64,000 nt of DNA from a virus (IMGVR_UViG_3300016471_001002:96001-160000), one strand, 5' to 3'; counted from the stretch's first letter, positions 18,169-47,271 are shown. The notes: a model not told the origin generated them from the letters alone. Numbers and translations: made by a program.

Positions 18169-18191
18169 CAAGAAATAAAAACCATTTTGGT

Positions 18192-18216
18192 CGCCCTCTT
18201 AACGGAGGGCGTTTTT
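18192..18216 (+). terminator. Intrinsic terminator
   Basis: CGCCCTC/GAGGGCG stem followed by TTTTT. Confidence 0.75.
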
Positions 18217-18237
18217 GTTTCAGCAAAGAATAAAATT

Positions 18238-18501
18238 GTGAAAAAAAGAAAAGAATCGTTGTATTCTATTTCTGTGAAAGTAGGGTCATTAGTTGTTCCT
18301 ACTTCGTTTAACCAAAGAGAATCTTTTTATTTAACTCCTATATCAGTTTTCGAGCAAGAAAATTTTTTATCTTGGCCAGAATGGAAAAAAGGAGAAATCG
18401 GAATTGTTCTACCCCCAGAAGAAGGTCAAATAGGAATTAAGGTTTTAATTCCTGATGGTGTTGGGTTGTGCTTCTTTGATGAAATAAAAGAGATATTGTA
18501 A
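18238..18501 (+). CDS. Small SH3/KOW-like protein (start uncertain)
   Basis: VKVGSLVV, GEIGIVL, IKVLIPDGVG. Confidence 0.5.
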   Translation: MKKRKESLYSISVKVGSLVVPTSFNQRESFYLTPISVFEQENFLSWPEWKKGEIGIVLPPEEGQIGIKVLIPDGVGLCFFDEIKEIL

Positions 18502-18504: not shown

Positions 18505-18855
18505 GTGAATACATTTATGAAAGTAGAACCCTTAAATAAAGTCGCGATTACTCTTTTTATAATTGCAAAAATCTTTGGATTAATTGGCGTTAGCATGGGA
18601 TTCATGGGATCAAAAACGCATACAATCGGAGGATATCTTCTTTTCTTTGCAATAATTTCTATTTTTGGATCCATAGGATGCGCATTGTTTCAAACGGCGA
18701 AAGATAAAAAGAAGTTTTCCAAAGAAGACGAAGAGAATGCAAAGCTTAACTCATTTATAAGAGTAAAATCGACTTTAGAACAAGAAATTAAAGATCTTGA
18801 AGAACGTAGAATGGCCCTTGAAAATTTTTTGATTAAAAAAGGAAAAATGCTATGA
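18505..18855 (+). CDS. Two-TM membrane protein with C-terminal coiled coil
   Basis: Two hydrophobic segments then a charged helix. Confidence 0.6.
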   Translation: MNTFMKVEPLNKVAITLFIIAKIFGLIGVSMGFMGSKTHTIGGYLLFFAIISIFGSIGCALFQTAKDKKKFSKEDEENAKLNSFIRVKSTLEQEIKDLEERRMALENFLIKKGKML

Positions 18856-19844
18856 TTAAGTTTGCAGATGTAATTTTAGACCTACAACAAGGTGATAGCG
18901 GAAAAGGAAAAATTTCGAACGCATTGGTTCAGACTGGCGAATATACACATTCAGTTAGATACAACGGATCTAATAATGCTGGGCATACGGTTTATGTTGA
19001 AGGCAAAAAAATTGTTACGCATAGCATTCCTGCCGGCGTTCTTCATGGTGTAAAAAGCATCATTGGCCCTGGTTGCGTTCTTAATATAGATCATTTCTTT
19101 GATGAAATGGATATGCTTTATGATAAAGGAATTGATCCGGATGATTTAGTTTTTATTTCAAAAAATACTCATATCATTACTAATAAGCATCTTGAAGAAG
19201 ATCAACAAGACGTTTCAATCGGAACAACAAAACGAGGCAACGGACCTGCATATAGAGACAAGTACGCAAGAAAAGGAAAACGTGCTGAAGATTTTCATGA
19301 ATTACAACCTTATTTAATTGATGTTTATGAAGAATTTCATGAAAAACAAGAATGCAGCATCCTCTTTGAAGGAGCGCAAGGATTTTATTTAGACATAGAC
19401 TGGGGTGATTATCCCTATGTGACTTCTTCTCATTGTACGGTTGGATCTGCAGTTATGAATGGAGTTCCACCACAAAAGATTAGAAGAATTTATGGAGCAG
19501 CAAAAATTTATGAGACTTATGTTGGTTCAAAGAAGTTTGAACCGAAAGATCCAGTTTTTGAAAAGATTAGGCAACTAGGTAATGAGTTTGGTGCAACCAC
19601 CAATAGGCCGCGGCAGTGTAATTGGTTGAATATTGATAATCTAGTTAAAGCAGTAAAAGTCAATGGTGTGACAGATCTTGTTATATCGAAGATGGATATT
19701 TTAAGAGAAATCCGAGCATGGAACATGTATTATAAAGGAAGAAAACTTTCTTTCTCTTCTGAGTGGGCAATCAAAGATTTTATCACGACTCAAGTTGGAA
19801 AAGATGTTATTATACATTGGAGTGATAATCCAGAAGCCATATGA
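18852..19844 (+). CDS. purA: Adenylosuccinate synthetase, short form
   Basis: QQGDSGKGK, NNAGHT, IGTTKRGNGPAY, FEGAQG..LDIDWGDYPYVTSS, EFGATTNRPR, ISKMD. Confidence 0.93.
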   Translation: MIKFADVILDLQQGDSGKGKISNALVQTGEYTHSVRYNGSNNAGHTVYVEGKKIVTHSIPAGVLHGVKSIIGPGCVLNIDHFFDEMDMLYDKGIDPDDLVFISKNTHIITNKHLEEDQQDVSIGTTKRGNGPAYRDKYARKGKRAEDFHELQPYLIDVYEEFHEKQECSILFEGAQGFYLDIDWGDYPYVTSSHCTVGSAVMNGVPPQKIRRIYGAAKIYETYVGSKKFEPKDPVFEKIRQLGNEFGATTNRPRQCNWLNIDNLVKAVKVNGVTDLVISKMDILREIRAWNMYYKGRKLSFSSEWAIKDFITTQVGKDVIIHWSDNPEAI

Positions 19845-23943: not shown

Positions 23944-24891
23944 ATGTTATCGTTTGAGGCACTTTCCTGTGATCCTTTGCGATTAATTAAGCAAAAATTT
24001 GCAAAATCTCGCGTCTTTATACCACGTGTCATCGAAACGTTGGAAGGCGTCTTCTCAAGAGGCGGCTATGTGTCAGGAGGATCTGCTGCGATCGTTGGCA
24101 GATGGTTGTTTTCTGAATTGAGTTATGGTACTTTGCCAGAAGAAGGTCCAAGATTTAAAAATGATGATCCTCAAAACCGTGTAGAGGAATACCTCATTTT
24201 GCCATCTTTTAGAATCCCGAAGGATGCAGAAGATAGGCTTAAAAATCGTTTTTGGAAATCAGGGGCTGGAGATATTGACTTTTATTTTAAAAATGATTCA
24301 GATGCATCTGATGTCATCCAATTCCTCAACATGGAAGTGAAGAGGTATAAAGTCTCCAACTTGTATCCGTCAGGTGATGCTCCGACTTTGGCTGGATGGG
24401 GACGAGAATATTATTTTGGTAATGCCCTCGTACAAGCAATCACGAAAATTACAGGTGATCCGTGTCAAATACTTGAATCTTTTGACATTGTCAATGCGCA
24501 GTGTTATCTAGACAAGAGTGGATTTTACTACACAAATCGTTGGTTAGATTGCGAAAAGAGGGGCGAGCTAGAGATTTTTAGGGGCGATAAGGACAACCTA
24601 TTATGGAGAGTCTCAAAATGGGCCGTACGACACAACTTAAGAGTAACCAGCGATTCTCAAAAGATTCTATCACATGCAGCCGTCAATCTTGCTGAAAAGA
24701 TTCAATTAGGAGATGGTCCTGTGATGTGGAATCGACCGGTCGACATGAAACATTTACGTGGAAAGGTTAAAGAATTAATTTGGAGATGGGATGCAAGCAA
24801 TATTCTATTGGCATCTCTTATTTTAGATTCTTATGATCAACTTGATCTATTAGGGTTAATTTCTGAAAAGAGCAAGGAGAATGATGCGTAA
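23944..24891 (+). CDS. Pol-beta superfamily nucleotidyltransferase-like protein
   Basis: GGYVSGGS..., GDIDFYF (DxD), ESFDIVNAQ. Confidence 0.6.
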   Translation: MLSFEALSCDPLRLIKQKFAKSRVFIPRVIETLEGVFSRGGYVSGGSAAIVGRWLFSELSYGTLPEEGPRFKNDDPQNRVEEYLILPSFRIPKDAEDRLKNRFWKSGAGDIDFYFKNDSDASDVIQFLNMEVKRYKVSNLYPSGDAPTLAGWGREYYFGNALVQAITKITGDPCQILESFDIVNAQCYLDKSGFYYTNRWLDCEKRGELEIFRGDKDNLLWRVSKWAVRHNLRVTSDSQKILSHAAVNLAEKIQLGDGPVMWNRPVDMKHLRGKVKELIWRWDASNILLASLILDSYDQLDLLGLISEKSKENDA

Positions 24892-25270
24892 TGTCATTGG
24901 AAAGAAAAAGACCAAAGCTATCTCGAAAGATGTTCAAAGATTTAAAGTAGGAGATTTGGTAAAGATAGTTGAAGATCCAAATAGTTTTGTGATCGGTGAG
25001 GGTCTCATTGACAGAATGGGTCTCATCGTAGAGTATGATTCAGAAAAAAACATTTATAGCGTTTTATTAGAAAACGGAAACAAATTTAGGATTTTGGATT
25101 TTATGTTGAAAAATGTAAAAAATATGAAAAAGCAAAAGAAACAGAAAAAGTTGGACGAAAGCGATTACACAAAAACGATTACGCACTGTCCAACTTGCGG
25201 AGTTGATCTAAATGGACCTGATTTTTGCAAATCGATAAATTGTGCTTGCGCTCCTAAAATTACGTGTTAA
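24881..25270 (+). CDS. SH3/KOW-like protein with Cys-rich C-terminus
   Basis: FKVGDLVKI, MGLIVE; CPTC...CKSINC. Confidence 0.55.
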   Translation: MMRNVIGKKKTKAISKDVQRFKVGDLVKIVEDPNSFVIGEGLIDRMGLIVEYDSEKNIYSVLLENGNKFRILDFMLKNVKNMKKQKKQKKLDESDYTKTITHCPTCGVDLNGPDFCKSINCACAPKITC

Positions 25271-25279
25271 TTATGGGAG

Positions 25280-25546
25280 ATGCAATCAAGCTCTTCTTTA
25301 GAGAAAATATTTAAATGCGGACAGTTGATCACTACAAATTTTGAAGGTGATTACAGGTTAACGTATTGTAGAGTACCTCTAGAGAAAACCATTCCAAATA
25401 ATACTCGATTCTACTGTGGAGACATAGGTCTTATCGTTGAAACGTTAGATGTACCAGACTTATTTTATACGTCTGGATTCGCGATGATTTTAGTTCCACA
25501 AGGAAGAGGGTGGGTCCCTTTTGAGTGGTTAAAGTCGTTGAGTTAA
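25280..25546 (+). CDS. Small SH3/KOW-like protein
   Basis: CGQLI, DIGLIVE, ILVPQGRGW. Confidence 0.6.
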   Translation: MQSSSSLEKIFKCGQLITTNFEGDYRLTYCRVPLEKTIPNNTRFYCGDIGLIVETLDVPDLFYTSGFAMILVPQGRGWVPFEWLKSLS

Positions 25547-25547
25547 T

Positions 25548-25781
25548 ATGTCGCCTGGGGATTTAGTACAAATTACATTAAGAGGAGTATGTTCCGATAA
25601 GTTTATAGGAATATTATTATCAATTTCTCTGGAGTCTCCCCACATTCCAAGGTATGATTCTCAGCAAAGTCGTCCTGGACCGATTTTTAATTTGAAAGTT
25701 TTGAAAATTGATGGAGAAATATGGGATTCTTGGATCGATCAAAATGATATTGTAGAAACTTTATTAAAAAATGAATTATGA
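25548..25781 (+). CDS. Small SH3/KOW-like protein
   Basis: MSPGDLVQ, IGILL. Confidence 0.6.
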   Translation: MSPGDLVQITLRGVCSDKFIGILLSISLESPHIPRYDSQQSRPGPIFNLKVLKIDGEIWDSWIDQNDIVETLLKNEL

Positions 25782-25790
25782 TTGATCAAA

Positions 25791-26018
25791 ATGATGAAGA
25801 CCGGTGATCTTATCATCGTTATTTCTCACGAATGGGAAAAATCCCAACACGGTCGGCGAGGGTATTCTTCATATCCAAGAGTCCGTGGGTTTCATAAGTC
25901 AATCTACGTAGTACCAGACACGATCGGAATCATACTAGAAAAACGGAATGATTACTACAGGATAGCCTTCGACTCTAGAGAAGTTTGGATGAACATGGAC
26001 AAGGTGAAAAAGCTATAG
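25791..26018 (+). CDS. Small SH3/KOW-like protein
   Basis: KTGDLII, TIGIILE. Confidence 0.6.
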   Translation: MMKTGDLIIVISHEWEKSQHGRRGYSSYPRVRGFHKSIYVVPDTIGIILEKRNDYYRIAFDSREVWMNMDKVKKL

Positions 26019-26034
26019 GATCTCCGGTGGTGGT

Positions 26035-26277
26035 ATGTCGTCGTCTCGTAGAAAAAACGTTGGTGATCTTGTGGTTCCAATCGGTACTTGGGACATTCTT
26101 CTCTTCGATGAAAATGCCGAACTTGGCTACACGATCCACTGGAAACCTGAACACGTGGCTCTCGTCATCGGTATGAAGACCCTCAACGATACCCAAGGAA
26201 GAACTAGGTTAATCGAGGTCCTCACCCCCAACGGTGCCGGATGGTGTTACCTATCGGAGGCTCAGAAGGTAAGATGA
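26035..26277 (+). CDS. Small SH3/KOW-like protein
   Basis: VGDLVV, EVLTPNGAGW. Confidence 0.6.
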   Translation: MSSSRRKNVGDLVVPIGTWDILLFDENAELGYTIHWKPEHVALVIGMKTLNDTQGRTRLIEVLTPNGAGWCYLSEAQKVR

Positions 26278-26477
26278 ACCCCGGTGACCTCGTTAGAAAA
26301 ATCGATTGGAACGGTGAGTTGAATCCCCGGTTGTTAGGGATTCTTCTCGAGGTGAAGATCGATAAAAAGTTGTTGAAGAGCCCCTTTGGAGTTCCGTGGA
26401 TTTATAAAGTGGCATGGAACGATGGTATTATCAAGGAACACGAGATGGGTACCCTCCGCAGGGTTTCAGTCAGGTGA
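26274..26477 (+). CDS. Small SH3/KOW-like protein
   Basis: MNPGDLVR, LGILLE; ATG overlaps upstream stop. Confidence 0.6.
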   Translation: MNPGDLVRKIDWNGELNPRLLGILLEVKIDKKLLKSPFGVPWIYKVAWNDGIIKEHEMGTLRRVSVR

Positions 26478-26480
26478 AAC

Positions 26481-26699
26481 ATGGAAATCACTTACCACGG
26501 GCACAACACCATAGAACTTAATCCTGGTGACCTAATCCGTTACCAGCTGGTTTCTGGTGTTTGGAACTACATGGGTACATTCATCGATGTTCTTCCACCC
26601 CTTCCTCACCGCGGAAACGTAAGATGGATTCGAGTCTTAACTCAGGACGGTTTGCAGAAGTTAAACACGGCCACCATTTTCAGGATGGAAAAGCAATGA
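26481..26699 (+). CDS. Small SH3/KOW-like protein
   Basis: NPGDLIR, RVLTQDG. Confidence 0.6.
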   Translation: MEITYHGHNTIELNPGDLIRYQLVSGVWNYMGTFIDVLPPLPHRGNVRWIRVLTQDGLQKLNTATIFRMEKQ

Positions 26700-26700
26700 G

Positions 26701-26735
26701 TGCAAAACCCGTCTTTCCTGTGGTATACTGACCCT
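26701..26735 (+). promoter_or_regulatory. Promoter TGCAAA-N17-TATACT-N6-ATG
   Basis: Conserved geometry, extended -10. Confidence 0.8.
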
Positions 26736-26945
26736 ATGGATCTGAAGCCCGGTGACCTGGTTCGGCACAAGATCAACCGCGATTGGGTGGGTGTGGTGTT
26801 GGGACTCGCAGTGGACCCGAATTCTCGTAGGAAATTTACGAAGTACACCGCCTACCAGTTGAACTCCTACCGTGTTCTTCGCCTGGGATCTGAATCGACC
26901 CTCTTCGCTAGGTTTCACATCTCGTACTTGGAGGTCATTGGGTGA
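26736..26945 (+). CDS. Small SH3/KOW-like protein
   Basis: LKPGDLVR, VGVVLG, LEVI. Confidence 0.6.
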   Translation: MDLKPGDLVRHKINRDWVGVVLGLAVDPNSRRKFTKYTAYQLNSYRVLRLGSESTLFARFHISYLEVIG

Positions 26946-27145
26946 TCAAACCGGGCGATCTGATTCGATTTACTTGGGCTCATCACCAGACGGCCATGGG
27001 TGTTGTTCTATCCATCCATCCACCGCCCAATTATCACAGTGGAATTGATTACACGATAGAGATCTTAGAGCCCGACGGCCGTAAGTTCGTTTATGATGTT
27101 TTTCGGGGTGGTGACCAACCGGAGGTCCTCAGTGAAGCCGGGTGA
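26942..27145 (+). CDS. Small SH3/KOW-like protein
   Basis: KPGDLIR, MGVVLS. Confidence 0.6.
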   Translation: MIKPGDLIRFTWAHHQTAMGVVLSIHPPPNYHSGIDYTIEILEPDGRKFVYDVFRGGDQPEVLSEAG

Positions 27146-27338
27146 TCTCATTCGTGGGAAGCAAGGCTTCTGGAAGGGCACCCCTCTGGTTGGTATCATC
27201 ATCAAGGAATCTGACCGTAGCAACACCTGGGGAGATGACAGGCACCAATGGTGGACGGTCCTGTGTGAGGGAGGTGTGGTTGTGGACGAGATTGAATCAC
27301 TGATGGAGGTCGTCGATGAAAACTCTTCAGGCAGGTGA
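27132..27338 (+). CDS. Small SH3/KOW-like protein
   Basis: GTG start, KPGDLIR, VGIIIK, MEVV. Confidence 0.6.
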   Translation: MKPGDLIRGKQGFWKGTPLVGIIIKESDRSNTWGDDRHQWWTVLCEGGVVVDEIESLMEVVDENSSGR

Positions 27339-27522
27339 CCTTGTTCAGGTGGAACCGCATGCCAGTTGCAACGTGGATTGGGGTTCGGCCAAGAGGCATT
27401 TTAACACTGGTAAACAGCCCACCTTGGGAGTCCTGATCGAGAACAAACTCGAGTGGTACCATGTGATGATGAACGATGGTAGATCTGGGTGGATTTGGTT
27501 CCGTGAGGTGAAGCCGTTGTGA
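27316..27522 (+). CDS. Small SH3/KOW-like protein
   Basis: AGDLVQ, LGVLIE, GRSGW. Confidence 0.6.
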   Translation: MKTLQAGDLVQVEPHASCNVDWGSAKRHFNTGKQPTLGVLIENKLEWYHVMMNDGRSGWIWFREVKPL

Positions 27523-27734
27523 AGCCGGGTGATTACGTTTCTGTGACTCGTTATCACAATGGTTTCCGCATGGATGACCCACCTATAACCGGTCTCCTGG
27601 TGGAACGTTGCCCATTGATGCCCTTCGATTCCTTTAAAAGATCTTTCATAATTAAGATACTGGAAACAACAGGGGAATTAAGGGAAATATTTGTGGACAA
27701 TCGTGATGTCACGAAGGTGCTAATTGGAGCCTGA
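27519..27734 (+). CDS. Small SH3/KOW-like protein
   Basis: KPGDYVS, TGLLVE. Confidence 0.6.
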   Translation: MKPGDYVSVTRYHNGFRMDDPPITGLLVERCPLMPFDSFKRSFIIKILETTGELREIFVDNRDVTKVLIGA

Positions 27735-28005
27735 GTACAAGGTCGGTGACCTGGTCCGACTCAATGTGGTCAAGAAACCCTTGGGATTGACGGTCCTCGT
27801 GGACATCAGCGGTGATGTTTTTGCGATGGAGATGAACCGTGATGGTTTGATTCCCAAGATCGTGGGACGGTTTTTCAAGGGTGATGTCGGTGTTGTTCTC
27901 CAGATCGATGATGAAACCTTCATGACTCGGATTATCACCAAGTCAGGTTTGATAGGTTGGGGAAACACTTGGGATTTTATCCCGGTGCAAAACACCGGGG
28001 GATGA
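27724..28005 (+). CDS. Small SH3/KOW-like protein
   Basis: YKVGDLVR, DVGVVLQ, KSGLIGW. Confidence 0.6.
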   Translation: MEPEYKVGDLVRLNVVKKPLGLTVLVDISGDVFAMEMNRDGLIPKIVGRFFKGDVGVVLQIDDETFMTRIITKSGLIGWGNTWDFIPVQNTGG

Positions 28006-28020
28006 TGATATTATAGAACC
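27986..28020 (+). promoter_or_regulatory. Promoter TGCAAA-N17-TATTAT-N6-ATG
   Basis: Conserved geometry, extended -10. Confidence 0.75.
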
Positions 28021-28218
28021 ATGAAGCTCGGTGACCTTCTCCTGGTGAATCCTGGAACTCATGTTCCGCCTGGTGGCCGATATTCCCAGGGTGTTGTTCT
28101 AACAAACCCTACCTCTCTGGGTTTTCTCACCATCGCGTGGCGGGATGGTAAGATCACAAGGGAATTTTTGGGTAATGTTTCCAAGTACTACACGGTGATC
28201 AACAGTGAAACCCGGTAA
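28021..28218 (+). CDS. Small SH3/KOW-like protein (close paralogue of 30280..30486)
   Basis: KLGDLLL, VPPGGRYSQGVVL. Confidence 0.62.
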   Translation: MKLGDLLLVNPGTHVPPGGRYSQGVVLTNPTSLGFLTIAWRDGKITREFLGNVSKYYTVINSETR

Positions 28219-28393
28219 ACTCGTTGTGTGGAGAGCTAGATTTCAAATGGATCTTCCTGGTGATATTGGGATCATCCTGGAACACATCCCCCATGAATCC
28301 CGTGGAAATGATCCGTTCCCCCACTGGAAGGTATTGTTTCCGGAACGCGGAGTTCTTCACTGCCGAGAATCGGATCTCCAGGAGGTTGAGTGA
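28205..28393 (+). CDS. Small SH3/KOW-like protein
   Basis: KPGKLVV, DIGIILE, DLQEV. Confidence 0.6.
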   Translation: MKPGKLVVWRARFQMDLPGDIGIILEHIPHESRGNDPFPHWKVLFPERGVLHCRESDLQEVE

Positions 28394-28578
28394 GAGTTGG
28401 TGATCTCGTTCTCTACACCAATCCCCAGAGGATGATCTCCCCCACACTCGGGATAATCACCGAGGAACACCACAACATCTCAATCGATCACCGTTTCTTC
28501 TCCGTTCTACTCCACAATGGTAGGAAACAAATCATCTCTGATCACTACCTCTCCCTCCCCGGTGAAAATCCACCGTAG
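28390..28578 (+). CDS. Small SH3/KOW-like protein
   Basis: RVGDLVL, LGIITE. Confidence 0.6.
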   Translation: MRVGDLVLYTNPQRMISPTLGIITEEHHNISIDHRFFSVLLHNGRKQIISDHYLSLPGENPP

Positions 28579-28597
28579 GATGATTTAGGATAACATC
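28563..28597 (+). promoter_or_regulatory. Promoter TGAAAA-N17-TAGGAT-N6-ATG
   Basis: Conserved geometry. Confidence 0.6.
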
Positions 28598-28813
28598 ATG
28601 AAGAACAAAAGAGGGCATCACTACTTCATTTCCTCCACCAAATCAGGAAAGATTCTTGCCCAAAGCGGGGAGAAAGGTGATGTGGAGAAGTTCTCCGAAA
28701 CATGGATTCGAGAATCTCCCCATTATGATCCAGGTGATCCAATCATCATAGAGAAGGTTACCGTGGATTGGGATGGTTTCAAAACCTCAAAAAAGATCAT
28801 CAAGGAATATTGA
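28598..28813 (+). CDS. Hypothetical protein
   Basis: 71-aa ORF behind promoter. Confidence 0.55.
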   Translation: MKNKRGHHYFISSTKSGKILAQSGEKGDVEKFSETWIRESPHYDPGDPIIIEKVTVDWDGFKTSKKIIKEY

Positions 28814-28816
28814 ACA

Positions 28817-29068
28817 ATGCCGCTCTATAGAGTAACATTCCATACAGAAATCCTCATCGATGCCCGTGATGAACGTGAGGCCGAGAGGATTGGGGATAGA
28901 AACCTAGAATCCGAGGTTAGGAACTGTGGATCCGAGGTGTATCGGATTGAGGAATTGAATTCCGTGGATCAACTCCGAAGGGCAGAGAGGGGTTCCTTAC
29001 CTTGGAGAGCAACGGAGAGAAGAGGGGAACCTGAGCTACTGGTGGAAGAGATTCTGGGAGGAAAGTGA
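28817..29068 (+). CDS. Hypothetical protein
   Basis: 83-aa ORF in chain. Confidence 0.6.
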   Translation: MPLYRVTFHTEILIDARDEREAERIGDRNLESEVRNCGSEVYRIEELNSVDQLRRAERGSLPWRATERRGEPELLVEEILGGK

Positions 29069-29071
29069 ACC

Positions 29072-29437
29072 GTGGGTACAAACTATTATCTCCACCAAAA
29101 ATCAACCTCGATGTGTGAACACTGTGGGCATGACCCCGGTGCCAAGGTGTTACACATAGGAAAATCCTCCTATGGTTGGTGTTTCTCCCTTCACATCATT
29201 CCTGAGGAAGGTATCAATTCCTTGGATGATTGGAAGTTGGCCTGGGATAAACCTGACACCAAGATCCTCAATGAATATGATGAGGTTGTCCGGCCCGAGG
29301 ACATGTTGAAGATCATCACCACTCGTGGCCCTGGAAAATGGTCACCTGAGGGAATGGATCCACAGAGACATGATGGGGATCACTGTGTTGGGCATGGAAA
29401 TGAATCATATGATCTTATCATTGGGGAATTTAGTTGA
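29072..29437 (+). CDS. Conserved phage hypothetical protein
   Basis: MGTNYY...LHIGKSSYGWCF pattern recalled from diverse phages. Confidence 0.65.
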   Translation: MGTNYYLHQKSTSMCEHCGHDPGAKVLHIGKSSYGWCFSLHIIPEEGINSLDDWKLAWDKPDTKILNEYDEVVRPEDMLKIITTRGPGKWSPEGMDPQRHDGDHCVGHGNESYDLIIGEFS

Positions 29438-29438
29438 G

Positions 29439-29473
29439 TGCAAAACACCGTGAGGGGATGATATACTGGTAAC
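29439..29473 (+). promoter_or_regulatory. Promoter TGCAAA-N17-TATACT-N6-ATG
   Basis: Conserved geometry, extended -10. Confidence 0.8.
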
Positions 29474-29686
29474 ATGGAGATCATCCGGGTACATGAACTT
29501 CAGGTTGGAAAACTGTACCGTTGGAATGAGTACATGGGTGATCAAGATGAGATCTTCATGGTGGTTGGAAACCCCATCGATGGAGTATCTCAGGATGTTC
29601 ACTATGTGGAAGTAATTTCCAGTAAGTTTTCCCACAATAAAATGATGGTTTTCTCCTCCGATCGATTCAACGAGGTGATGGAATGA
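29474..29686 (+). CDS. Small SH3/KOW-like protein
   Basis: LQVGKLYR, FMVVG, VEVI. Confidence 0.55.
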   Translation: MEIIRVHELQVGKLYRWNEYMGDQDEIFMVVGNPIDGVSQDVHYVEVISSKFSHNKMMVFSSDRFNEVME

Positions 29687-29910
29687 AGCCCAGTTCCGGT
29701 ATGGTTCCAGGTGTTCTGGTTAGAAACCGTTGCTATATGCATTTTTATCTCACCGCGGAAAGTGTTAACCGTGGAATTCCGAAGGAAGGAATTCCTATGG
29801 ATTCCATCAGTACTGTTCTCACCCCGCCTAACGGAACCTGGATCAAGGTTCTGTGTGATGGTAAGATCGGCTGGGTTAACTGGACCCTGTGGCTTGAGGT
29901 GATCCAGTGA
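29683..29910 (+). CDS. Small SH3/KOW-like protein
   Basis: PGVLVR, KVLCDGKIGW, LEVI. Confidence 0.6.
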   Translation: MKPSSGMVPGVLVRNRCYMHFYLTAESVNRGIPKEGIPMDSISTVLTPPNGTWIKVLCDGKIGWVNWTLWLEVIQ

Positions 29911-30098
29911 AACCAGGTGATCTGGTTAGGTTAACTCGTTTCGATGAGATACCTTTCATTGGTGTTTATCTCGGCCCATCCAATAGATTTGATGAGAAGA
30001 GACAACCTTATGAGGGGAGGTTCGTGTTGAACACCGGAATCATTAAAGATGTTGATTTCGGAAACCATTTGGTTTGGAACTTCGAGGTGATGAAGTGA
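29907..30098 (+). CDS. Small SH3/KOW-like protein
   Basis: KPGDLVR, IGVYLG, FEVM. Confidence 0.6.
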   Translation: MKPGDLVRLTRFDEIPFIGVYLGPSNRFDEKRQPYEGRFVLNTGIIKDVDFGNHLVWNFEVMK

Positions 30099-30283
30099 AA
30101 CTATCTCTCGGTGATATGGTTTTCGTGAGGGATTCTCTCTTTGTTCCTCCAACAAAACCGTTAATCATCATTGATATCTACAAGGTAGGGCTTTCTTCGT
30201 ATCCCTACTTCGTGGTTGTGGATCCAAACACCGGTGAAAAGTTTACTTACCAGAAACACGATCTTTCGGAGGATCCTCTGTGA
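30095..30283 (+). CDS. Small SH3/KOW-like protein
   Basis: GTG start, LGDMVFV, LIIID. Confidence 0.55.
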   Translation: MKLSLGDMVFVRDSLFVPPTKPLIIIDIYKVGLSSYPYFVVVDPNTGEKFTYQKHDLSEDPL

Positions 30284-30486
30284 GTTTTTGTGTTGGTGAT
30301 TTACTCCTCGTGGCACCGGGTTCATATGTTCCACCGGGTGGAAGATATTCCCAGGGGATTGTTTTATCTGATCCTGATCCAGGTTTCCGTACCGTGTATG
30401 TGGCCTGGTATGATGGTAAGATCACCCAGGAATTGGTGAGTAACCTTTTGAAATCCTACGTGAGGATCACCAATGATTCTAGGTGA
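30280..30486 (+). CDS. Small SH3/KOW-like protein (close paralogue of 28021..28218)
   Basis: VGDLLL, VPPGGRYSQGIVL. Confidence 0.62.
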   Translation: MSFCVGDLLLVAPGSYVPPGGRYSQGIVLSDPDPGFRTVYVAWYDGKITQELVSNLLKSYVRITNDSR

Positions 30487-30697
30487 TCTTCTCCAGGCAA
30501 AGAGTAAAATCCAGGTTGGTGTGGTTCGGATCTACAGGGAGCCCCAATGTGATTCATGGGAAACACACACGATAAAGGGTGAAACATTCCTTCTATTGGA
30601 GGAACACAAGAATCAGTGGGGCCAGGATGTTTGTAAGGTTCTATTTCCCTGGGGAATCCGTTGGGTTTACCGGTTGGATGTGGAGGTGGTGGAATGA
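30473..30697 (+). CDS. Small SH3/KOW-like protein
   Basis: ILGDLLQ, CKVLFPWGIRW, VEVV. Confidence 0.6.
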   Translation: MILGDLLQAKSKIQVGVVRIYREPQCDSWETHTIKGETFLLLEEHKNQWGQDVCKVLFPWGIRWVYRLDVEVVE

Positions 30698-30885
30698 AAA
30701 GGGGAACCTTGGTTCGATTCAACGTTTCCATCTATTCTGATTGGGGTTTGGGGATTCTCCTCGGTGAGAAACCGATTGTGGATAGAGAAGGTAGGAATCA
30801 CCGTGGATTTTATGATGTTTTAACCCAGTGTGGAGTTAAACTAGTTTCCAGTGAATACTTTGAGAGGTTGAGTTGGGATGTTTAG
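30694..30885 (+). CDS. Small SH3/KOW-like protein
   Basis: KRGTLVR, LGILLG, DVLTQCG. Confidence 0.6.
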   Translation: MKRGTLVRFNVSIYSDWGLGILLGEKPIVDREGRNHRGFYDVLTQCGVKLVSSEYFERLSWDV

Positions 30886-31111
30886 CATTGGTGATTTGGT
30901 GAGGATGAAGAAAGTTTATAGTTCCACACCACTTTTTTCCACCTGGGGAAACAAGGAAGGTGGTGATAAACCCATTGGAACCATTCAACCAGGTGAGATC
31001 GGTGTTGTTCTTGAAACAACCCAACCTCGAGGTGGAAACGGGGCACGGATCATGGTATCCGGTGGGAAGATCGGTTGGGTTAATCTTATTTTCCTGGAGA
31101 ATGAAACATGA
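30878..31111 (+). CDS. Small SH3/KOW-like protein
   Basis: SIGDLVR, EIGVVLE, GKIGWV. Confidence 0.62.
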   Translation: MFSIGDLVRMKKVYSSTPLFSTWGNKEGGDKPIGTIQPGEIGVVLETTQPRGGNGARIMVSGGKIGWVNLIFLENET

Positions 31112-31308
31112 AACCTGGGGATCTTCTCAAATTCATCCATATTGTTGATCTAATGGATCCGATTTACCGTGAATCCGGGTGGAAGTTTGGGATCTACCTG
31201 GAGCACAAAAACATTAAGTTCAGTGGTGAAACCATAAAGGTTATCGATTCCGACGGGAAGATAAACCACTATCCTCAGGATTCATATCATTTCCAGGTGG
31301 TGGAATGA
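31108..31308 (+). CDS. Small SH3/KOW-like protein
   Basis: KPGDLLK, FGIYLE, FQVV. Confidence 0.6.
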   Translation: MKPGDLLKFIHIVDLMDPIYRESGWKFGIYLEHKNIKFSGETIKVIDSDGKINHYPQDSYHFQVVE

Positions 31309-31478
31309 TTCCATCTCCAGGTGATTTGGTAAAAGTGAAAGGCTACAGAACAGATTCACTCGGGTTGATTATCGATATTCAAGGTGGAACTGGTTTGTAC
31401 CGGGTTTGGTTGCTCGGCCAACCTGATCTCTATAAGGTTTTCCGGTATTCCAAGGAGATGTTGGAGGTTGTGGGGTGA
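31305..31478 (+). CDS. Small SH3/KOW-like protein (57 aa, absent from ORF track)
   Basis: Translated by hand: MIPSPGDLVKVKGYRTDSLGLIIDIQGGTGLYRVWLLGQPDLYKVFRYSKEMLEVVG; overlaps both neighbours. Confidence 0.6.
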   Translation: MIPSPGDLVKVKGYRTDSLGLIIDIQGGTGLYRVWLLGQPDLYKVFRYSKEMLEVVG

Positions 31479-31660
31479 GAAACAATGATATCCCCAGTAT
31501 CAATCAGGTGGTACCTGGATCCCTGGTTATCCACCGTTACACCCCTGAGATCGGTGTGGTTCTCCGCGTTTCCTGGAACATGGTTGAGGTTCTACTTGGA
31601 AACTCCACCGTGAAGTGGGAGATGAATGGATTCAGAAGTACCTATAGGAATCTCCAGTGA
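31475..31660 (+). CDS. Small SH3/KOW-like protein
   Basis: VPGSLVI, EIGVVLR. Confidence 0.58.
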   Translation: MRNNDIPSINQVVPGSLVIHRYTPEIGVVLRVSWNMVEVLLGNSTVKWEMNGFRSTYRNLQ

Positions 31661-31884
31661 GAATCGGTGATATGGTTCAACTCAGCCCCTCCCACAAGAG
31701 TTACGTTAACATGTATGAGGAGGATGATCTGAACCGAATAGAGAACGGTGAAAGGTTCTACCGGAATGATATAGGATTGGTTCTGGAGAGCCAAGGGAAC
31801 GGGGAATACATCCACTTCAAGGTTTTAACTCCCCGCGGGGCAATGGGGTGGATCCATAACTTCCACCTGGAGTTGGTGAGATGA
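31657..31884 (+). CDS. Small SH3/KOW-like protein
   Basis: RIGDMVQ, DIGLVLE, KVLTPRGAMGW, LELVR. Confidence 0.62.
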   Translation: MRIGDMVQLSPSHKSYVNMYEEDDLNRIENGERFYRNDIGLVLESQGNGEYIHFKVLTPRGAMGWIHNFHLELVR

Positions 31885-32084
31885 AACCCGGAGATTTGGT
31901 TTTAATCTCCGCGGATTTTCTGGAACCACATGAACCCCGTGTGGGGATATTCTGGAGTGATAAGGTTCCACTGGATGAATGGGGAGATCAGGTTGCAGGT
32001 GAGTGTGATTGTATCGTTTTCTGGAACGAAGATTTCATTCCTTTCATATGGGAAAACCTAACACTCCTCTCGGAGGTACCATGA
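31881..32084 (+). CDS. Small SH3/KOW-like protein
   Basis: KPGDLVL, VGIFW. Confidence 0.6.
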   Translation: MKPGDLVLISADFLEPHEPRVGIFWSDKVPLDEWGDQVAGECDCIVFWNEDFIPFIWENLTLLSEVP

Positions 32085-32272
32085 AACGGGGTGATCTGGT
32101 AAAAATCACCCATCAAAAAACAGGAGAGGGTGAGGTGGTGGTGTGTTACAAACCGGAGGTAATCAGGTGTTTCAATCACTATGGTTCTTATCATGGAATC
32201 CAGATGATCAATTCCAACGGAACCATTGTTTGTTACCCGGTGGATCGTTGGAGTTTTGAGGTGATCCGGTGA
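32081..32272 (+). CDS. Small SH3/KOW-like protein
   Basis: KRGDLVK, FEVIR. Confidence 0.6.
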   Translation: MKRGDLVKITHQKTGEGEVVVCYKPEVIRCFNHYGSYHGIQMINSNGTIVCYPVDRWSFEVIR

Positions 32273-32472
32273 GAGTTGGAGATCTAGTTCGTTTCCGAAC
32301 CGGGAGGAAACTAATCACCAGGGATATCACCTGGGATACAGGATTGATACTTGAGATATTCCTCGATGATTTTGATGGGGGAGATAAGTGCAAAATTCTG
32401 GATTCCAGTGGTAGAATTAAATGGATTCGTTCCCATGGAACCGAGGTATTGAACCACAATGAAACCTGGTGA
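32269..32472 (+). CDS. Small SH3/KOW-like protein
   Basis: RVGDLVR, TGLILE, KILDSSG. Confidence 0.62.
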   Translation: MRVGDLVRFRTGRKLITRDITWDTGLILEIFLDDFDGGDKCKILDSSGRIKWIRSHGTEVLNHNETW

Positions 32473-32707
32473 TATGGTTAGTGTGAAGGATGGTGATAAA
32501 GGTAACACCTACTGGTTATACCATCCTGAATCCCCAATTACCATTAACCTCATCCCCACCGATATTCGGTTTGGATTCTCAGATACCGGTTTGATATTGG
32601 AATCCCATGTGAACACTGGGATGTACCCTTACGCAACCTTCCTCAAGATTCTCACCCCTCGGGGAATCGGTTGGGCAAATGAGAATTGGGTGGAGGTTCT
32701 ACTGTGA
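32459..32707 (+). CDS. Small SH3/KOW-like protein
   Basis: KPGDMVS, DTGLILE, KILTPRGIGW. Confidence 0.62.
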   Translation: MKPGDMVSVKDGDKGNTYWLYHPESPITINLIPTDIRFGFSDTGLILESHVNTGMYPYATFLKILTPRGIGWANENWVEVLL

Positions 32708-32973
32708 AACCTGGATCACAAGTTCGTTTAATTCCTGAGTTGGAAGGTAACGAGGATTACAAGATCCTCTGGGATGATCCACCGGATTTCACTTCAATCT
32801 ACAGGAAGAACCACACCGGGAGGTTCCGTTACACCGAGGTTGGAATGGTTCTTGAACAAAGATATGTTTCCGATGATAACCTACCTCTTCACGTTCAAAC
32901 CACCTGGATCAAGGTTCTATGTTCCTCAGGAATCGGTTGGATTAAAAGATGTGATCTGGAGTTGGTGAGATGA
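32704..32973 (+). CDS. Small SH3/KOW-like protein
   Basis: KPGSQVR, EVGMVLE, KVLCSSGIGW, LELVR. Confidence 0.62.
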   Translation: MKPGSQVRLIPELEGNEDYKILWDDPPDFTSIYRKNHTGRFRYTEVGMVLEQRYVSDDNLPLHVQTTWIKVLCSSGIGWIKRCDLELVR

Positions 32974-33176
32974 AGATCGGAAATCTTATTCGAATCACTC
33001 GGTTCTTCAAGGATTGGAAGATCAACACCACCACCGGTGTTCTACTACATTTTTGCCCCGTGGAACCAATCAAGGATACCCATAAAAAATCTTTCAATAT
33101 TCGGATGTTGGAAACCAACGGGGAAATTCAGGATTTTATTCTGGTTCCGGAGGATGGGATTGAGGTGTTGGGGTGA
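32970..33176 (+). CDS. Small SH3/KOW-like protein
   Basis: KIGNLIR, TGVLL, IEVL. Confidence 0.6.
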   Translation: MKIGNLIRITRFFKDWKINTTTGVLLHFCPVEPIKDTHKKSFNIRMLETNGEIQDFILVPEDGIEVLG

Positions 33177-33370
33177 GAAAACCAGGTGATATGGTTCGAA
33201 TCTCCTCCAAAACCGATGGTGATATTGATGGAAAACTTGCCACCGTTATCGAGCATGTGGATGAGAACCTCCGTTCCGGGAGGATGTGTTACACCAAGGT
33301 TTTCCTCATGATTTCCGGGGTTCCTGTTTTTAGGTACCTCTGCCCGGATTCACTGGAGTTGGTGAGATGA
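33173..33370 (+). CDS. Small SH3/KOW-like protein
   Basis: KPGDMVR, ATVIE, LELVR. Confidence 0.6.
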   Translation: MRKPGDMVRISSKTDGDIDGKLATVIEHVDENLRSGRMCYTKVFLMISGVPVFRYLCPDSLELVR

Positions 33371-33594
33371 AAAATAGAACACTTTTATCTCTAGGTGATC
33401 CAGTTATTTGTACCCCTTTCAAATGGGAAAACAATCCTGAAGTGGATTCTCCACCGTTTGTGGGGATGTGGATGGGGAGTAGAAGGAATGAATGGAATCC
33501 ATCCGAATATAATGTTCTCGGCCCGGATGGGTTGGTTTGGTTGTGGAGTAACCGTTGGGCGGTGGAGAGGATCAATGAAACCGAACCTCGGTGA
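33367..33594 (+). CDS. Small SH3/KOW-like protein
   Basis: LGDPVI, YNVLGPDGLVW. Confidence 0.55.
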   Translation: MKNRTLLSLGDPVICTPFKWENNPEVDSPPFVGMWMGSRRNEWNPSEYNVLGPDGLVWLWSNRWAVERINETEPR

Positions 33595-33784
33595 GTTGTG
33601 GATGGTGAGTGATACCGTTAGGGTAACCGTTGGAAACAAGGTTGCAACTTTCCGCCTATCCGGGCCGGGTTTGGTGGTGAAAATCCATGAGAACCGCGAT
33701 GAATACGGAGATTATTACACCGTGTTCTGGGGTGGAAAAACATCGGAACTATTCCGGGATAATTTTGTGGAGAGGATATCTTGA
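33575..33784 (+). CDS. Small SH3/KOW-like protein
   Basis: LGELW, GLVVK, YTVFWGG. Confidence 0.55.
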   Translation: MKPNLGELWMVSDTVRVTVGNKVATFRLSGPGLVVKIHENRDEYGDYYTVFWGGKTSELFRDNFVERIS

Positions 33785-33981
33785 AATTATCTCCTGGAAA
33801 TCTAATCAGAATCTATCTCCTACCACACCGAGATGAGTTACGGAACGGTGGGATTGTTGTTGGGAAATCCAATGAATTCGGTTCTGATTTCTATGATGTT
33901 CTGGAACTTGGAACCGGGCGGATGATTTATGTTCCAGTGAACAGTATCGGGAAGAAGTATGAGATTGAGGTGTTTGGGTGA
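33781..33981 (+). CDS. Small SH3/KOW-like protein
   Basis: SPGNLIR, GGIVVG, IEVF. Confidence 0.58.
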   Translation: MKLSPGNLIRIYLLPHRDELRNGGIVVGKSNEFGSDFYDVLELGTGRMIYVPVNSIGKKYEIEVFG

Positions 33982-34241
33982 GTAAATTTAACCCCGGTGA
34001 TTCGGTTCGGATCAGATCTGATCCAAATCACCCAACGGATCAACATCGAATTTACGATTTCCCGGAGAAGATCCGCTGGGCTGGAGAATCCATAGTTCCT
34101 CGGAGTTTCATCGGTAAGGTTCCGGGTGGTTCAATTGGAATCGTGGTGGAGATAAAAGAGGAACAGTGTAAGGTTCTGTTTTTCGGTGGTGAGGTTTTCG
34201 GATGGGTGAGTGAGAACAAATTAGTTGGGGAGGCAGAGTGA
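33978..34241 (+). CDS. Small SH3/KOW-like protein
   Basis: FNPGDSVR, SIGIVVE, EVFGWV. Confidence 0.62.
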   Translation: MSKFNPGDSVRIRSDPNHPTDQHRIYDFPEKIRWAGESIVPRSFIGKVPGGSIGIVVEIKEEQCKVLFFGGEVFGWVSENKLVGEAE

Positions 34242-34257: not shown

Positions 34258-35151
34258 TCAACCTTCCCGTTGAAGTTTTTCTAACCTTTTCTTTTCCCGC
34301 CCTAATCTCTGTTTTTCCTTCACCATTGCTCTATATTCAGGATTTTCCCACTGTTTCTTTCTTATTTCACTCATCTTTTTCCTGTGCTCAGGATCCTCCC
34401 ACATTTTCTTACTCGATTCAGAAATCTTTTCTTTATACTCAGGATCCTCCCACTTTTTCTTGCTGGATTCAGAAATCTTTTCTCTATACTCAGGATCCTC
34501 CCACTTTTTTTTATGTGATTCTCTCATCTTTTCTCTATATTCAGGATTTTCCCACTGTTTCTTTACTGATTCGCTTAATTTTCCCCTGCGTTCAGGACCC
34601 TCCCACACCTTCTTTCTAGATTTACTCATCTTTTCCTTGTGCTCAGGATCCTCCCACATTTTCTTTTGAGTTTCGCTCATCTTTTTTCTTTGTTCAGGAT
34701 CTTCACACCTTTTTTTATGTGATTCACGCATCTTTTTTTTGAACATGGGATCTTCCCACATCTTCTTACTTTTTTCCTGATGTTTTTTTCTTTGTTCAGG
34801 ATCTTCGAGCCTTTTTTTATGTGATTCACTCATCTTTTTTTTAACTTCTTCAGTGTACTTGTATCCTGAAACACCATCTCCACCAAGGGTAAAATTCGCT
34901 CCACCTTTTCCATGATGAACATATGTTTGAAGTTCCCCAATGAGTTGAATCTCTTTCTCAAATGATTCTTGCTCACTGCGAGTTTCAAAAACAATTTCTC
35001 TGATGATCCCATGCTTGTTTTTGATTCTTGTGTGAAGATGATTTCTTTCTAGATCTTTAACTCTACTTTCATCACCTTTCCCAACGTAGAAGGGCTTTCT
35101 ATCATCACCTCTGAAATCAACATACACGAAGAATTTCTTCTCAATTTCCAT
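34258..35151 (-). mobile_element. GIY-YIG-family homing endonuclease with ten 17-aa (51-bp) WEDPE repeats (NUMOD3-like)
   Basis: FVYVD...FYVGKG...R...E...N(FTLGGDG) nuclease pattern; repeat KKxWEDPEYREKxSES. Confidence 0.75.
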
Positions 35152-35281: not shown

Positions 35282-36922
35282 ATGAAAACCAGCAAAATTT
35301 TTTTGATCATATGTACCCTGGTTTCAGGGGCATTCCTTTCTTACCCGAAGATCCTCCGGTGGCAGGTAGAGAAAAGGTTACCAGGAGTTGAATTCACGGA
35401 TGTAAATCTAGAGTTGTTACCTTTCGTGCTCACCCTATCAGGGGTTACCTTCAACCGTGGGTGGATCTCCGGTGATCTGGAAAGTATAACCTCTGATTTC
35501 CGCGGTGAACATGTTGTTCTGAGGGGTGGAAACCTGACCGTGAACCTGGATGATAAACCAGAAGGGGATGATAAACCGGATGGGTTTACCGTTCAAAAGA
35601 GGGATATTCAACTAAGAAACCTTGGTGTGAAGGTATCCCACACGGGGCACAACATCACCATGGAAGGTGTTCGAACCGATGGCCCCAAGGTGTGTTTCTC
35701 CTCGGCCAGGTTGGAGGTTCCAAACATCACCACCGGGAACGGTTGTTTCAACCGGGAAGATGATAGTTTCACCGTGGGCCGGGCAGAAATGAAGTTGATG
35801 AAGTTCAGAGGTGCTGAGGTAAAGAACCTCACCGCAGAGAACATCACCTTCAACACCAAAACCAAGGTGGCCCAGGTGGATAAGGTAGGGGTTCAGGTAA
35901 CCTTCGAAGGCCAAGAATTCCTCATCGATTCTCACGGTGTGATGGCATCCAGAAAACCCGATACCATCAAGGTTGAATCACTAAAGGTAAAACATCCATG
36001 GTTGGCCGGGGATTGGTTGGAACTAGGAAAGGTGAGTGTTGGCCACGGAGACAGGTGGAGCCTCACCGTTGGGGGTTCCCACATCGGGGTTGAACCAAAA
36101 TCACTTACGATTTCAGGGGAGGAGGAATGCGGAACCTGGATCGATTCACTTCCGCCCAACCTGAAGATCGGCCCACTTTCAGGGGTGAAGATGACAGGTA
36201 AATCCAGTTTTTCCATCGGGTTCCGTCCCAAACCTACCTTCAACCTCAGGTCCGATTGCAGGGCCCGGTGTGATTCACTTCCAAACCTACGGAAGCCATT
36301 CCGCTACACGGCCTATGATCCCAAAGGAAAACCATTCGAGAGGGAGACCGGCCGAGGTACCAGAAGCTGGGTTTCATTGTTGATGACCGGAGATATGCCC
36401 CTGGCCGTAACCACCATGGAGGATCCTGGTTTCGAACATCACCGTGGATTCATTGTTCAGGCCTTCAGCAACAGTTTCCTGGATAACCTAAAACAAGGCC
36501 GTTTTCTCCGAGGTGGAAGTACCATCACAATGCAGTTGGCCAAGAACCTCTGGTTGACCCGAGAAAAAACCTTGGGTAGAAAGGTTCAGGAATTCTTCTT
36601 ATCTCAGGCCCTGGAATCTTGTTATTCCAAGGATGAGATCATGGAGTTGTACCTAAACGTTGTTGAATTTGGCCCTAATCAGTATGGAGTTGGAAACGGT
36701 TCCATGTATTGGTTCCACAAGGGCCCTGGTGAATTGGTACCAACCGAGGCATTTTGGTTGGCCAGTATCCTACCTCGGCCTAGTAGAACACAACCTCCAA
36801 CCGATTCTAGTTTGAAACACGTGGAAGGTTTGATGAAACGTTTGGCCGAGGATGGCCGTATTCCTAATTTCACGGATGATATGGTGGAACCCGAGGAAGT
36901 GCAAAACCCCGAGGAGCCATGA
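35282..36922 (+). CDS. Peptidoglycan glycosyltransferase (GT51, no transpeptidase domain) with N-terminal anchor and beta-rich region
   Basis: All five GT51 motifs: EDPGFEHHRG, GGSTITMQLAKNL, RKVQE, KDEIMELYLN, LASILPRP. Confidence 0.9.
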   Translation: MKTSKIFLIICTLVSGAFLSYPKILRWQVEKRLPGVEFTDVNLELLPFVLTLSGVTFNRGWISGDLESITSDFRGEHVVLRGGNLTVNLDDKPEGDDKPDGFTVQKRDIQLRNLGVKVSHTGHNITMEGVRTDGPKVCFSSARLEVPNITTGNGCFNREDDSFTVGRAEMKLMKFRGAEVKNLTAENITFNTKTKVAQVDKVGVQVTFEGQEFLIDSHGVMASRKPDTIKVESLKVKHPWLAGDWLELGKVSVGHGDRWSLTVGGSHIGVEPKSLTISGEEECGTWIDSLPPNLKIGPLSGVKMTGKSSFSIGFRPKPTFNLRSDCRARCDSLPNLRKPFRYTAYDPKGKPFERETGRGTRSWVSLLMTGDMPLAVTTMEDPGFEHHRGFIVQAFSNSFLDNLKQGRFLRGGSTITMQLAKNLWLTREKTLGRKVQEFFLSQALESCYSKDEIMELYLNVVEFGPNQYGVGNGSMYWFHKGPGELVPTEAFWLASILPRPSRTQPPTDSSLKHVEGLMKRLAEDGRIPNFTDDMVEPEEVQNPEEP

Positions 36923-36934
36923 TAGGATGTGGTT
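36900..36934 (+). promoter_or_regulatory. Promoter TGCAAA-N17-TAGGAT-N6-ATG (within 3' end of the GT51 gene)
   Basis: Conserved geometry, extended -10. Confidence 0.7.
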
Positions 36935-37123
36935 ATGGATGTTGGTGATTTGTGTTTTACCAATTTCTTTGGTGAACCACACCGAGCGGGGATAATCCTG
37001 AGAGTTGGGTGGAATTCCTATGGGATTGTATCCTACCTAACCCTCCTCCCTGATGGGAAACAGGTTTATTTCCGCCCGGAACAAATCATCCTCCCCGAGG
37101 AGTTTCAAAAATATCATGAGTGA
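36935..37123 (+). CDS. Small SH3/KOW-like protein
   Basis: MDVGDLC, AGIILR. Confidence 0.58.
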   Translation: MDVGDLCFTNFFGEPHRAGIILRVGWNSYGIVSYLTLLPDGKQVYFRPEQIILPEEFQKYHE

Positions 37124-37442
37124 AATAAACACGGTATTCATCACCTCCCTCCTCACCCTCGATGGAAAACTACTCGATGAGGTTGATTGGAAAATTGGAG
37201 ATATGGTTCGTTTCCTTTACTCCAGTTCCACCGGAACCATTGTGAGAAAAACCTCCGATAATCAGGTGGAGGTTTTATGGGGTGATTTTTACAATCCCTT
37301 CCACGATACATTGGGGAGGCCCGGAGGTAGGATTAACTACGATCAGGTTGCAAGGAATTTATTCACCGTGGAACCTCTTCCTCAAGGTGCAATTCCTTTC
37401 TACCTGGATATGGTGGAAAAAAGAATGAAGGGTGATGAGTGA
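37116..37442 (+). CDS. Protein with internal SH3/KOW-like domain
   Basis: WKIGDMVR, TGTIVR, VEVLW. Confidence 0.55.
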   Translation: MSEINTVFITSLLTLDGKLLDEVDWKIGDMVRFLYSSSTGTIVRKTSDNQVEVLWGDFYNPFHDTLGRPGGRINYDQVARNLFTVEPLPQGAIPFYLDMVEKRMKGDE

Positions 37443-40449: not shown

Positions 40450-40489
40450 TACCATAAATATAAGTAAAGATAAGAAAAAAGATTCTTTT

Positions 40490-46900: not shown

Positions 46901-46917
46901 AGGTAATAATTACCCCT

Positions 46918-47187: not shown

Positions 47188-47271
47188 AATATGATGAAGA
47201 TAGATTCCGTAATGCCATCCAAAAGATTGAAGGCAAACTAACCTTTTTAAGGGTGATGAATAATTAATCCC

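Follow-up and report, generated by a model that had tools for sequence, protein, structure and literature searches.

Bacterial SH3b domains (SH3_3, PF08239; GW, PF13457), represented by the C-terminal domain of the phiSM101 endolysin Psm (4krt) and by InlB (1m9s), are exported, fused to hydrolases or surface proteins, and bind the cell wall. Small stand-alone SH3-like proteins are also common among uncharacterised phage proteins, and in phage T4 the early proteins GoF, MotB.1, and Frd.2 have been recognised as small LSm-like barrels (PMC12152347). Lineage-specific expansion of a single tiny domain has been described in Bacillus phage G, where a set of about 35 zinc-ribbon proteins was termed 'unprecedented' (Iyer et al., 2021, PMC7824862). 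The locus considered here lies in a stretch of 64,000 nucleotides (the window), which comprises bases 96001–160000 of the 211,097-bp linear IMG/VR virus contig IMGVR_UViG_3300016471_001002. The contig has an estimated completeness of 65% (CheckV) and derives from an uncultured freshwater jumbo phage that is part of a jumbo-phage clade. Its most conspicuous feature is a 9.36-kb array of very small genes at 24881–34241 on the plus strand, which represents an old, lineage-specific expansion, within this clade, of a stand-alone SH3b-type mini-protein. The predicted fold is the one seen in bacterial SH3b domains, including an extra hairpin in the RT-loop region, but the proteins stand alone, are 57–95 residues long, and fall below Pfam thresholds.

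The family was delimited with a hidden Markov model (HMM) seeded with 16 array members and iterated over all six-frame open reading frames (ORFs) of at least 40 residues in the contig. At convergence it held 52 members at E < 0.01 across the whole contig, and a second, independent profile search of the genome returned 50; about 12 weaker candidates bring the family to roughly 60, the size proposed in an earlier note made from the sequence alone. No match was obtained among 6,415 shuffled or 1,283 reversed ORFs, and chance ORFs are ruled out by these controls together with the rates of substitution and the conservation in relatives described below. The array itself consists of 42 back-to-back, co-directional genes of 57–129 residues and, with curated starts, is 98% coding. 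Thirty-three of its genes score at E < 0.01 and a further four to six are probable members. Genes 25280, 28021, 28598, and 31475 match weakly (E 0.05–0.28), gene 30280 shares 58% identity with one of these four (28021), the membership of 30095 and 29474 is uncertain, and 28817 and 29072 are unrelated to the family, so the 39 members originally counted in the array become the upper bound of a range of 33–39. Inserted genes of 71, 83, and 121 residues occupy 28598–29437 (+), the latter two being outside the family. The first gene of the array (24881–25270) is its sole two-part member, in which a lysine-rich linker connects the SH3 domain to a zinc ribbon-like tail rich in cysteine (CPTC...C...C.C).

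Evidence for the fold comes from AlphaFold2 models of two members and from structural searches made with them. The first model (31657–31881, built from a 45-member alignment) has a mean predicted local distance difference test score (pLDDT) of 91.7, and all 50 of its 50 best Foldseek matches in the PDB are SH3 domains. The best match in an exhaustive structural search was the cell-wall-binding SH3_3 domain of phiSM101 endolysin (Z 9.8, root-mean-square deviation 2.4 Å over 67 residues), followed by the GW domain of InlB (Z 8.1), and the matches in the AlphaFold DB and the ESM Atlas were SH3b/SH3_3 domains with template modelling (TM) scores of 0.72–0.81. The second model, of the divergent and HMM-weak gene 28021, is less confident (pLDDT 73.9) and has five strands (residues 6–9, 22–26, 34–41, 44–51, and 57–60) in the same order as the first; its structural matches are Tudor, KOW, SH3, and Sm barrels at Z 5–6.8. 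On these models the family is an SH3-type five-strand barrel whose nearest relatives are bacterial SH3b/SH3_3 domains. The SH3-like small-barrel fold that the earlier note had guessed from motif pattern is borne out by both models and their matches, and the heterogeneity of folds that the note had named as refuting evidence was not seen, the strand order being common to the two members modelled.

At the level of primary sequence the relationship is distant. None of ten members matched Pfam SH3_3 (PF08239) even at E ≤ 1 (gathering threshold 27 bits), one of the ten matched KOW (PF00467) with a score of 12.9 bits (E 0.1; cut-off 22.3), and a search of the same number of members against Pfam and PHROGs gave nothing above threshold. 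A profile search of PDB sequences returned marginal matches only, to SH3, KOW, and L19. The two-domain relative P0006 scores 22.5 bits to Pfam SH3_3, and the family profile matches three proteins that carry 4–16 Pfam SH3_3 repeats each (P0001, P0010, and P0025) at E 6e-14 to 6e-7, P0001 being the strongest at 6e-14. Because its members lie below Pfam and PHROG thresholds and yet its profile matches SH3_3-repeat proteins, these comparisons place the family among the bacterial SH3 domains, as a remote branch that has not been filed. Each protein stands by itself, with strand 1 beginning at residue 2–5, and no signal peptide, hydrophobic N-terminus, or membrane anchor was found in family members; except for the second part of 24881, the members on the contig likewise have no second domain or fusion to a catalytic domain.

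The match columns of the HMM give the consensus MKPGDLV, GIvLE, yKVL, G.iGw, and lE, which reproduces the scaffold motifs first picked out by eye. Length varies at profile positions 17 and 25, corresponding to the RT loop (inserts of up to 16–18 residues), and at positions 39–44, corresponding to the n-Src loop (inserts of up to 13 residues). The description of the family as a constant scaffold with a variable loop therefore holds, with the inserts concentrated in these two loops, which in SH3 domains flank the ligand groove. Low pairwise identity outside the scaffold had also been claimed, and paralogues in the genome share a median identity of 22% and a maximum of 43%, independent of distance. 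The isoelectric points of 39 members are acidic in 14, neutral in 14, and basic in 11, a spread that argues against one generic charged ligand.

The genes of the array are tightly interlocked. Four-nucleotide RTGA stop/start overlaps occur at 22 of 38 junctions and the remaining junctions are mostly overlaps of 8–23 nt, with the Shine-Dalgarno sequence of the next gene (GGAGGT or GAGGTG) lying inside the codons of the conserved C-terminal L-E-V-V. Of the 32 coupled genes, 29 have a Shine-Dalgarno sequence in their final 30 nt, versus two of the seven without a coupled successor; an E[VL]x tail occurs in 15 of 32 coupled versus none of seven uncoupled genes, and the ratio of the glutamate codons GAG to GAA is 33:15 in tails versus 55:70 elsewhere. 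Since the Shine-Dalgarno sequence sits in its codons and is enriched in coupled genes, the L-E-V-V motif appears to be in part a ribosome-binding site, and translational coupling of the downstream cistrons is predicted from the combination of overlaps and Shine-Dalgarno sequences. A joint element of about 39 nt recurs at the DNA level in at least 10 copies in the array; in the example at 29894–29932 (+), GAGGTG in the L-E-V codons is followed by an RTGA overlap and then by AAACCNGGTGATCTGGTT, encoding K-P-G-D-L-V. A polyprotein or frameshift product is ruled out, as each gene has its own start and Shine-Dalgarno sequence. Three metagenome relatives carry two or four family domains per chain (P0006, P0033, and P0018), an arrangement expected if the RTGA stop between adjacent cassettes were lost, and in P0055 a TIR domain is joined to SH3-like repeats.

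The earlier note had also proposed expression from strong early promoters, a view that was not upheld: sigma-70-like sites show no excess (19 found versus 21.8 expected in shuffles), and a family-specific motif was found instead. The motif, GTGCAAAAYMCC, occurs in four exact copies in the window, each with an ATG exactly 36 nt downstream (none expected from shuffles), and a fifth copy is a one-base variant (GTGCAAAACCCG, 26700–26738, +) which has TATACT 6 nt upstream of the start codon of member 26736. Among the plus-strand copies at 27985–28023, 29438–29476, 36899–36937, and 48143–48181, the first (GTGCAAAACACC) stands exactly 36 nt upstream of the ATG of member 28021 and the second, with the same spacing, precedes gene 29474. 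The third precedes the weak member 36935 and has an orthologous copy in the related contigs G002 and G004, and the fourth precedes member 48179, so that all five copies lie before family or family-like genes. Each ATG is also preceded by a TAnnnT box, whose end lies 6 nt upstream of it. Three related contigs together have seven copies with identical spacing, and in six cases the gene that follows is a family member. The combination of GTGCAAAAYMCC at about −36 to −24 and the TAnnnT box is consistent with a putative family-specific promoter, and the placement of the box 6 nt before the ATG predicts that the first cistron is leaderless. This layout, an upstream box near −30 plus a −10 box, resembles that of T4 middle promoters, by analogy only. 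With a predicted leaderless first gene and a Shine-Dalgarno sequence set into a conserved beta strand, the operon design would exemplify dual coding, through which a protein seems more conserved than it is.

The family extends well beyond this contig. DNA of the array was detected in at least 10 independent freshwater metagenome studies, and a profile search of 1.84 billion representative proteins returned 433 clusters (50% identity) at E ≤ 0.001; nearly all of the matched metagenome proteins are 55–95 residues long with the domain at the start, and all are unnamed. Arrays of 19–29 copies are present in four related freshwater phage contigs from IMG/VR, of 278 kb, 298 kb (complete), 68 kb, and 32 kb (the last two being fragments), with 19–23 copies per contig in the profile search and 23–36 by HMM in the parts examined. 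Neither the array, searched by megablast, nor one family member and its 608-residue neighbour, searched by tblastn, had any match among 50,697 GenBank phages. A paper on a 'moraphage' (PMC12619734) mentions neither SH3 nor paralogue families, and no link between that phage and this lineage was found.

Orthologues in the related contigs are 50–100% identical, and many members have no orthologue in the parts of the relatives examined. Pooled over 20 orthologous pairs, the ratio of nonsynonymous to synonymous substitution rates (dN/dS) is 0.26 for scaffold positions and 0.39 for the inserted loops, indicating that the genes are maintained by purifying selection; positive selection in the loops, for which the earlier note had suggested a test, is not supported. 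No long DNA repeats were found in the array. Recent tandem amplification (a 'gene accordion') is ruled out by the divergence of the paralogues, none of which has a near-identical neighbour. The near-identical repeat pair of a diversity-generating retroelement is likewise absent from the array, the genome not having been searched for a reverse transcriptase.

The array overlaps a second unusual feature, a block at 28034–48536 in which GAC/GTC occurs 30 times versus 480 expected from the rest of the genome. Within it GpC is reduced to 0.38x and AGC/GCT, CGC/GCG, and GCA/TGC are also depleted. The block covers the last two thirds of the array, beginning 10 bases after the start codon of 28021, the gene served by the motif at 27985, and its far edge falls some 0.4 kb beyond the motif at 48143; G001 and G002 show the same purge next to their arrays. 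Its edge can be read in the scaffold codons, K-P-G-D-L-V being encoded by GGTGACCT before it and by GGTGATCT after it, and in the alanine content of family proteins, which is 0.9% inside the block versus 2.2% before the edge because the GpC depletion hits GCN codons. The depletion is strand-symmetric, affecting each site and its reverse complement, which suggests double-strand recognition, and hence avoidance of restriction or modification, and not a mutational bias of one strand. The leftover GAC/GTC sites cluster at 29132–29367, 36050–36556, and 45087–46283, that is, in the 121-residue gene of the array, in a GT51 gene, and in an endonuclease-like gene, and these three clusters are apparently recent insertions; for the 121-residue gene this is suggested by its possession of six of the few remaining sites. 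The rest of the block consists of small ORFans that match nothing in Pfam or PHROGs. On the 278-kb linear contig G001, array and purged block continue past both termini (266–278 kb and 0.1–5.7 kb), which points to either an assembly break within the array or a circularly permuted genome.

We consider it highly probable (about 0.9) that these genes constitute an old SH3b-like family with variable loops, held under purifying selection and arranged in operons with a leaderless first gene and coupled translation. That the products are putative cytoplasmic binding modules with individual targets, serving host takeover or counter-defence, is more tentative, and we would put its probability at 0.4–0.5. 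According to this proposal, the genes would be transcribed as polycistronic operons whose first cistron is leaderless and driven by the family promoter, and the later cistrons would be translated by coupling through the RTGA overlaps and the Shine-Dalgarno sequences in the L-E-V-V codons. Each protein would then act in the cytoplasm as a binding module with a separate target, which would be a protein or peptide of the host or the phage, and the whole set would contribute to host takeover and/or counter-defence. The surroundings, composed of small ORFans as in the early regions of large phages, speak in favour of this proposal. On the side of the purged block, the same idea may be carried further by analogy: the block could be a restriction-proof, first-expressed module like the first-step-transfer DNA of T5, and the SH3 set a long-kept library of about 50 distinct inhibitors or decoys, one per host factor or defence system, although we regard this extension as speculative and rather unlikely.

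Several observations weigh against a set of takeover or counter-defence binders. The nearest named relatives, SH3b domains, bind the cell wall outside the cell; as family proteins without an export signal cannot act there, homology yields no transferable function. The age of the paralogues does not fit a fast-adapting amplification, and a crude pooled test gave no sign of diversifying selection between orthologues, though arms-race binders might show it. Inference of the host was also unrewarding, since a close relative of the GT51 gene is absent among 185,579 species genomes and the isocitrate lyase of the phage, with 70–74% identity to many phyla, is uninformative. Evidence of expression is thin: four contigs (151–199 nt, 95–100% identity) from two riverine metatranscriptomes map inside 31545–32628 and none in the flanks, but the runs were picked for matching that interval and carry-over of DNA is possible.

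Other functions can be envisaged for so small a barrel. Like other nucleic-acid-binding barrels (KOW, Sm/LSm, Tudor, and Sso7d), the proteins might be RNA chaperones or modulators of transcription or translation, a role to which the second model lends some weight, its best matches being the UvrD/PcrA Tudor, NusG/Spt5 KOW, and LSm/Hfq barrels (Z 5–6), as do the weak matches of the profile to Spt5 KOW and ribosomal L19 (E 0.08–0.25) and the isoelectric points above 8 in 11 of 39 members. However, such Z values for KOW and Sm barrels are typical of any small barrel, the best-modelled member is nearest to SH3b and not to KOW or Sm, 14 of the 39 members are acidic, and fifty different loops are hard to square with generic nucleic-acid binding, so that we consider this role unlikely. 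A function internal to the phage, with the proteins as adaptors or chaperones of virion assembly or as packaged and ejected components, would imply fifty distinct small virion components, which would be unprecedented. SH3-like domains do occur in phage structural proteins, and six members adjoin large, possibly structural minus-strand genes at 49.6–58.3 kb, but the array lies among small ORFans, away from recognisable structural genes, and this explanation appears improbable.

The organisation of the array might alternatively reflect a largely self-propagating expansion of cassettes, in which the joint of about 39 nt favours unequal recombination and single copies add little fitness. The multiple conserved copies of that joint, the variation in repertoire among relatives, where many members lack an orthologue in the examined parts, and the fused two- and four-domain relatives would all be in keeping with such a process. 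It is nonetheless difficult to reconcile with an orthologue dN/dS of 0.26–0.39, with intact frames across an array that is 98% coding, with paralogues that are old yet intact, and with the retention of arrays in four relatives, and its probability is accordingly judged to be small. Canonical SH3b-like binding of peptidoglycan or its precursors, perhaps in concert with the neighbouring GT51 transglycosylase, draws on the fact that the nearest folds are the cell-wall-binding SH3_3 and GW domains and that the GT51 gene lies 1 kb downstream within the same purged block. Given that signal peptide, membrane anchor, and catalytic fusion are all absent and that no member reaches the Pfam SH3_3 threshold, it is the least probable of the explanations considered. 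Cytoplasmic binding modules with individual targets are thus the function we favour, with the reservations given above.

The dispersed copies that had been described outside the array were mostly confirmed by the HMM. Three lie at 4204–5773 (−; 4204–4446, 5044–5292, and 5540–5773), one of 93 residues at 13590–13871 (−), one of 104 residues at 18187–18501 (+), and a cluster of six at 58839–60535 (+). Those at 46516–49419 comprise two members at 46516–46900 (+) and the four firm members (48179, 48416, 48932, and 49189) of a cluster at 48179–49657 (+) that also holds two weak ones (48720 and 49355). The copies claimed at 36.9–37.4 kb fared less well: the two family-like genes at 36935–37442 (+) are weak matches at best (HMM E 0.76 and 45), and their membership is probable only by motif and promoter. 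Three further family members lie beyond the window.

The phage also carries cellular-type genes for isocitrate lyase, adenylosuccinate synthetase, and a GT51 protein, at 6167–7420 (−), 18852–19844 (+), and 35282–36922 (+); the last encodes 546 residues with the GT51 peptidoglycan transglycosylase domain at the C-terminal end. Three minus-strand paralogues of about 300 residues (34258–35151, 39484–40455, and 45366–46346) contain tandem repeats of 51 nt, which code for repeats rich in lysine and glutamate. By eye, the first of the three genes has the look of a GIY-YIG homing endonuclease, without a hit in Pfam, and similar genes of 292 residues break up small-gene arrays in related lake contigs (L002:461–1339(−) and L003:124–1002(−)).

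Both small stand-alone SH3-like phage proteins and lineage-specific expansions are already known. The novelty lies in how large this family is and in its not being filed in the family databases, in a design of coupled operons that places a Shine-Dalgarno sequence in the last strand, in the dedicated promoter motif, and in the link to the purged block. The family is missing from Pfam, PHROGs, and the GenBank phages, yet it is widespread in lakes, as the 433 clusters attest. The array shares its location with a GAC/GTC-free block that has sharp edges and persists in relatives, so two unexplained features can be studied together, and some 50 natural SH3 scaffolds with differing loops may be of use for finding phage–host interfaces and as a binder scaffold.

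Among free-standing barrels of known function, the cyanobacterial proteins NdhS, PetP, and PsaE (55–75 residues), which dock on large complexes, are structural matches at Z 6.5–7.7 with no sequence relation to the family. Giant viruses encode dozens of copies of protein-interaction modules such as ankyrin, MORN, BTB, and F-box; these are multi-repeat proteins of eukaryotic viruses, whereas the genes described here are single-domain and lie in bacterial-type operons. The small barrels of T4 resemble the present family in standing alone, in lying in ORFan regions, and in forming divergent paralogue-like sets recognised only by structure prediction. They differ in being three proteins against fifty and LSm-like instead of SH3b-like, and the comparison is one of predicted fold. 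Phage G offers another likeness: it too is a jumbo phage, and a single very small binding domain, functionally uncharacterised, has been multiplied in it to tens of paralogues. The fold is a different one, however, and in the present case the family, with 52 firm copies, is shared across the clade and organised in coupled operons that have a promoter motif of their own. If the proteins are made, this would be the largest single-domain paralogue family that we have found described for a phage, with 52 firm members versus about 35 in phage G.

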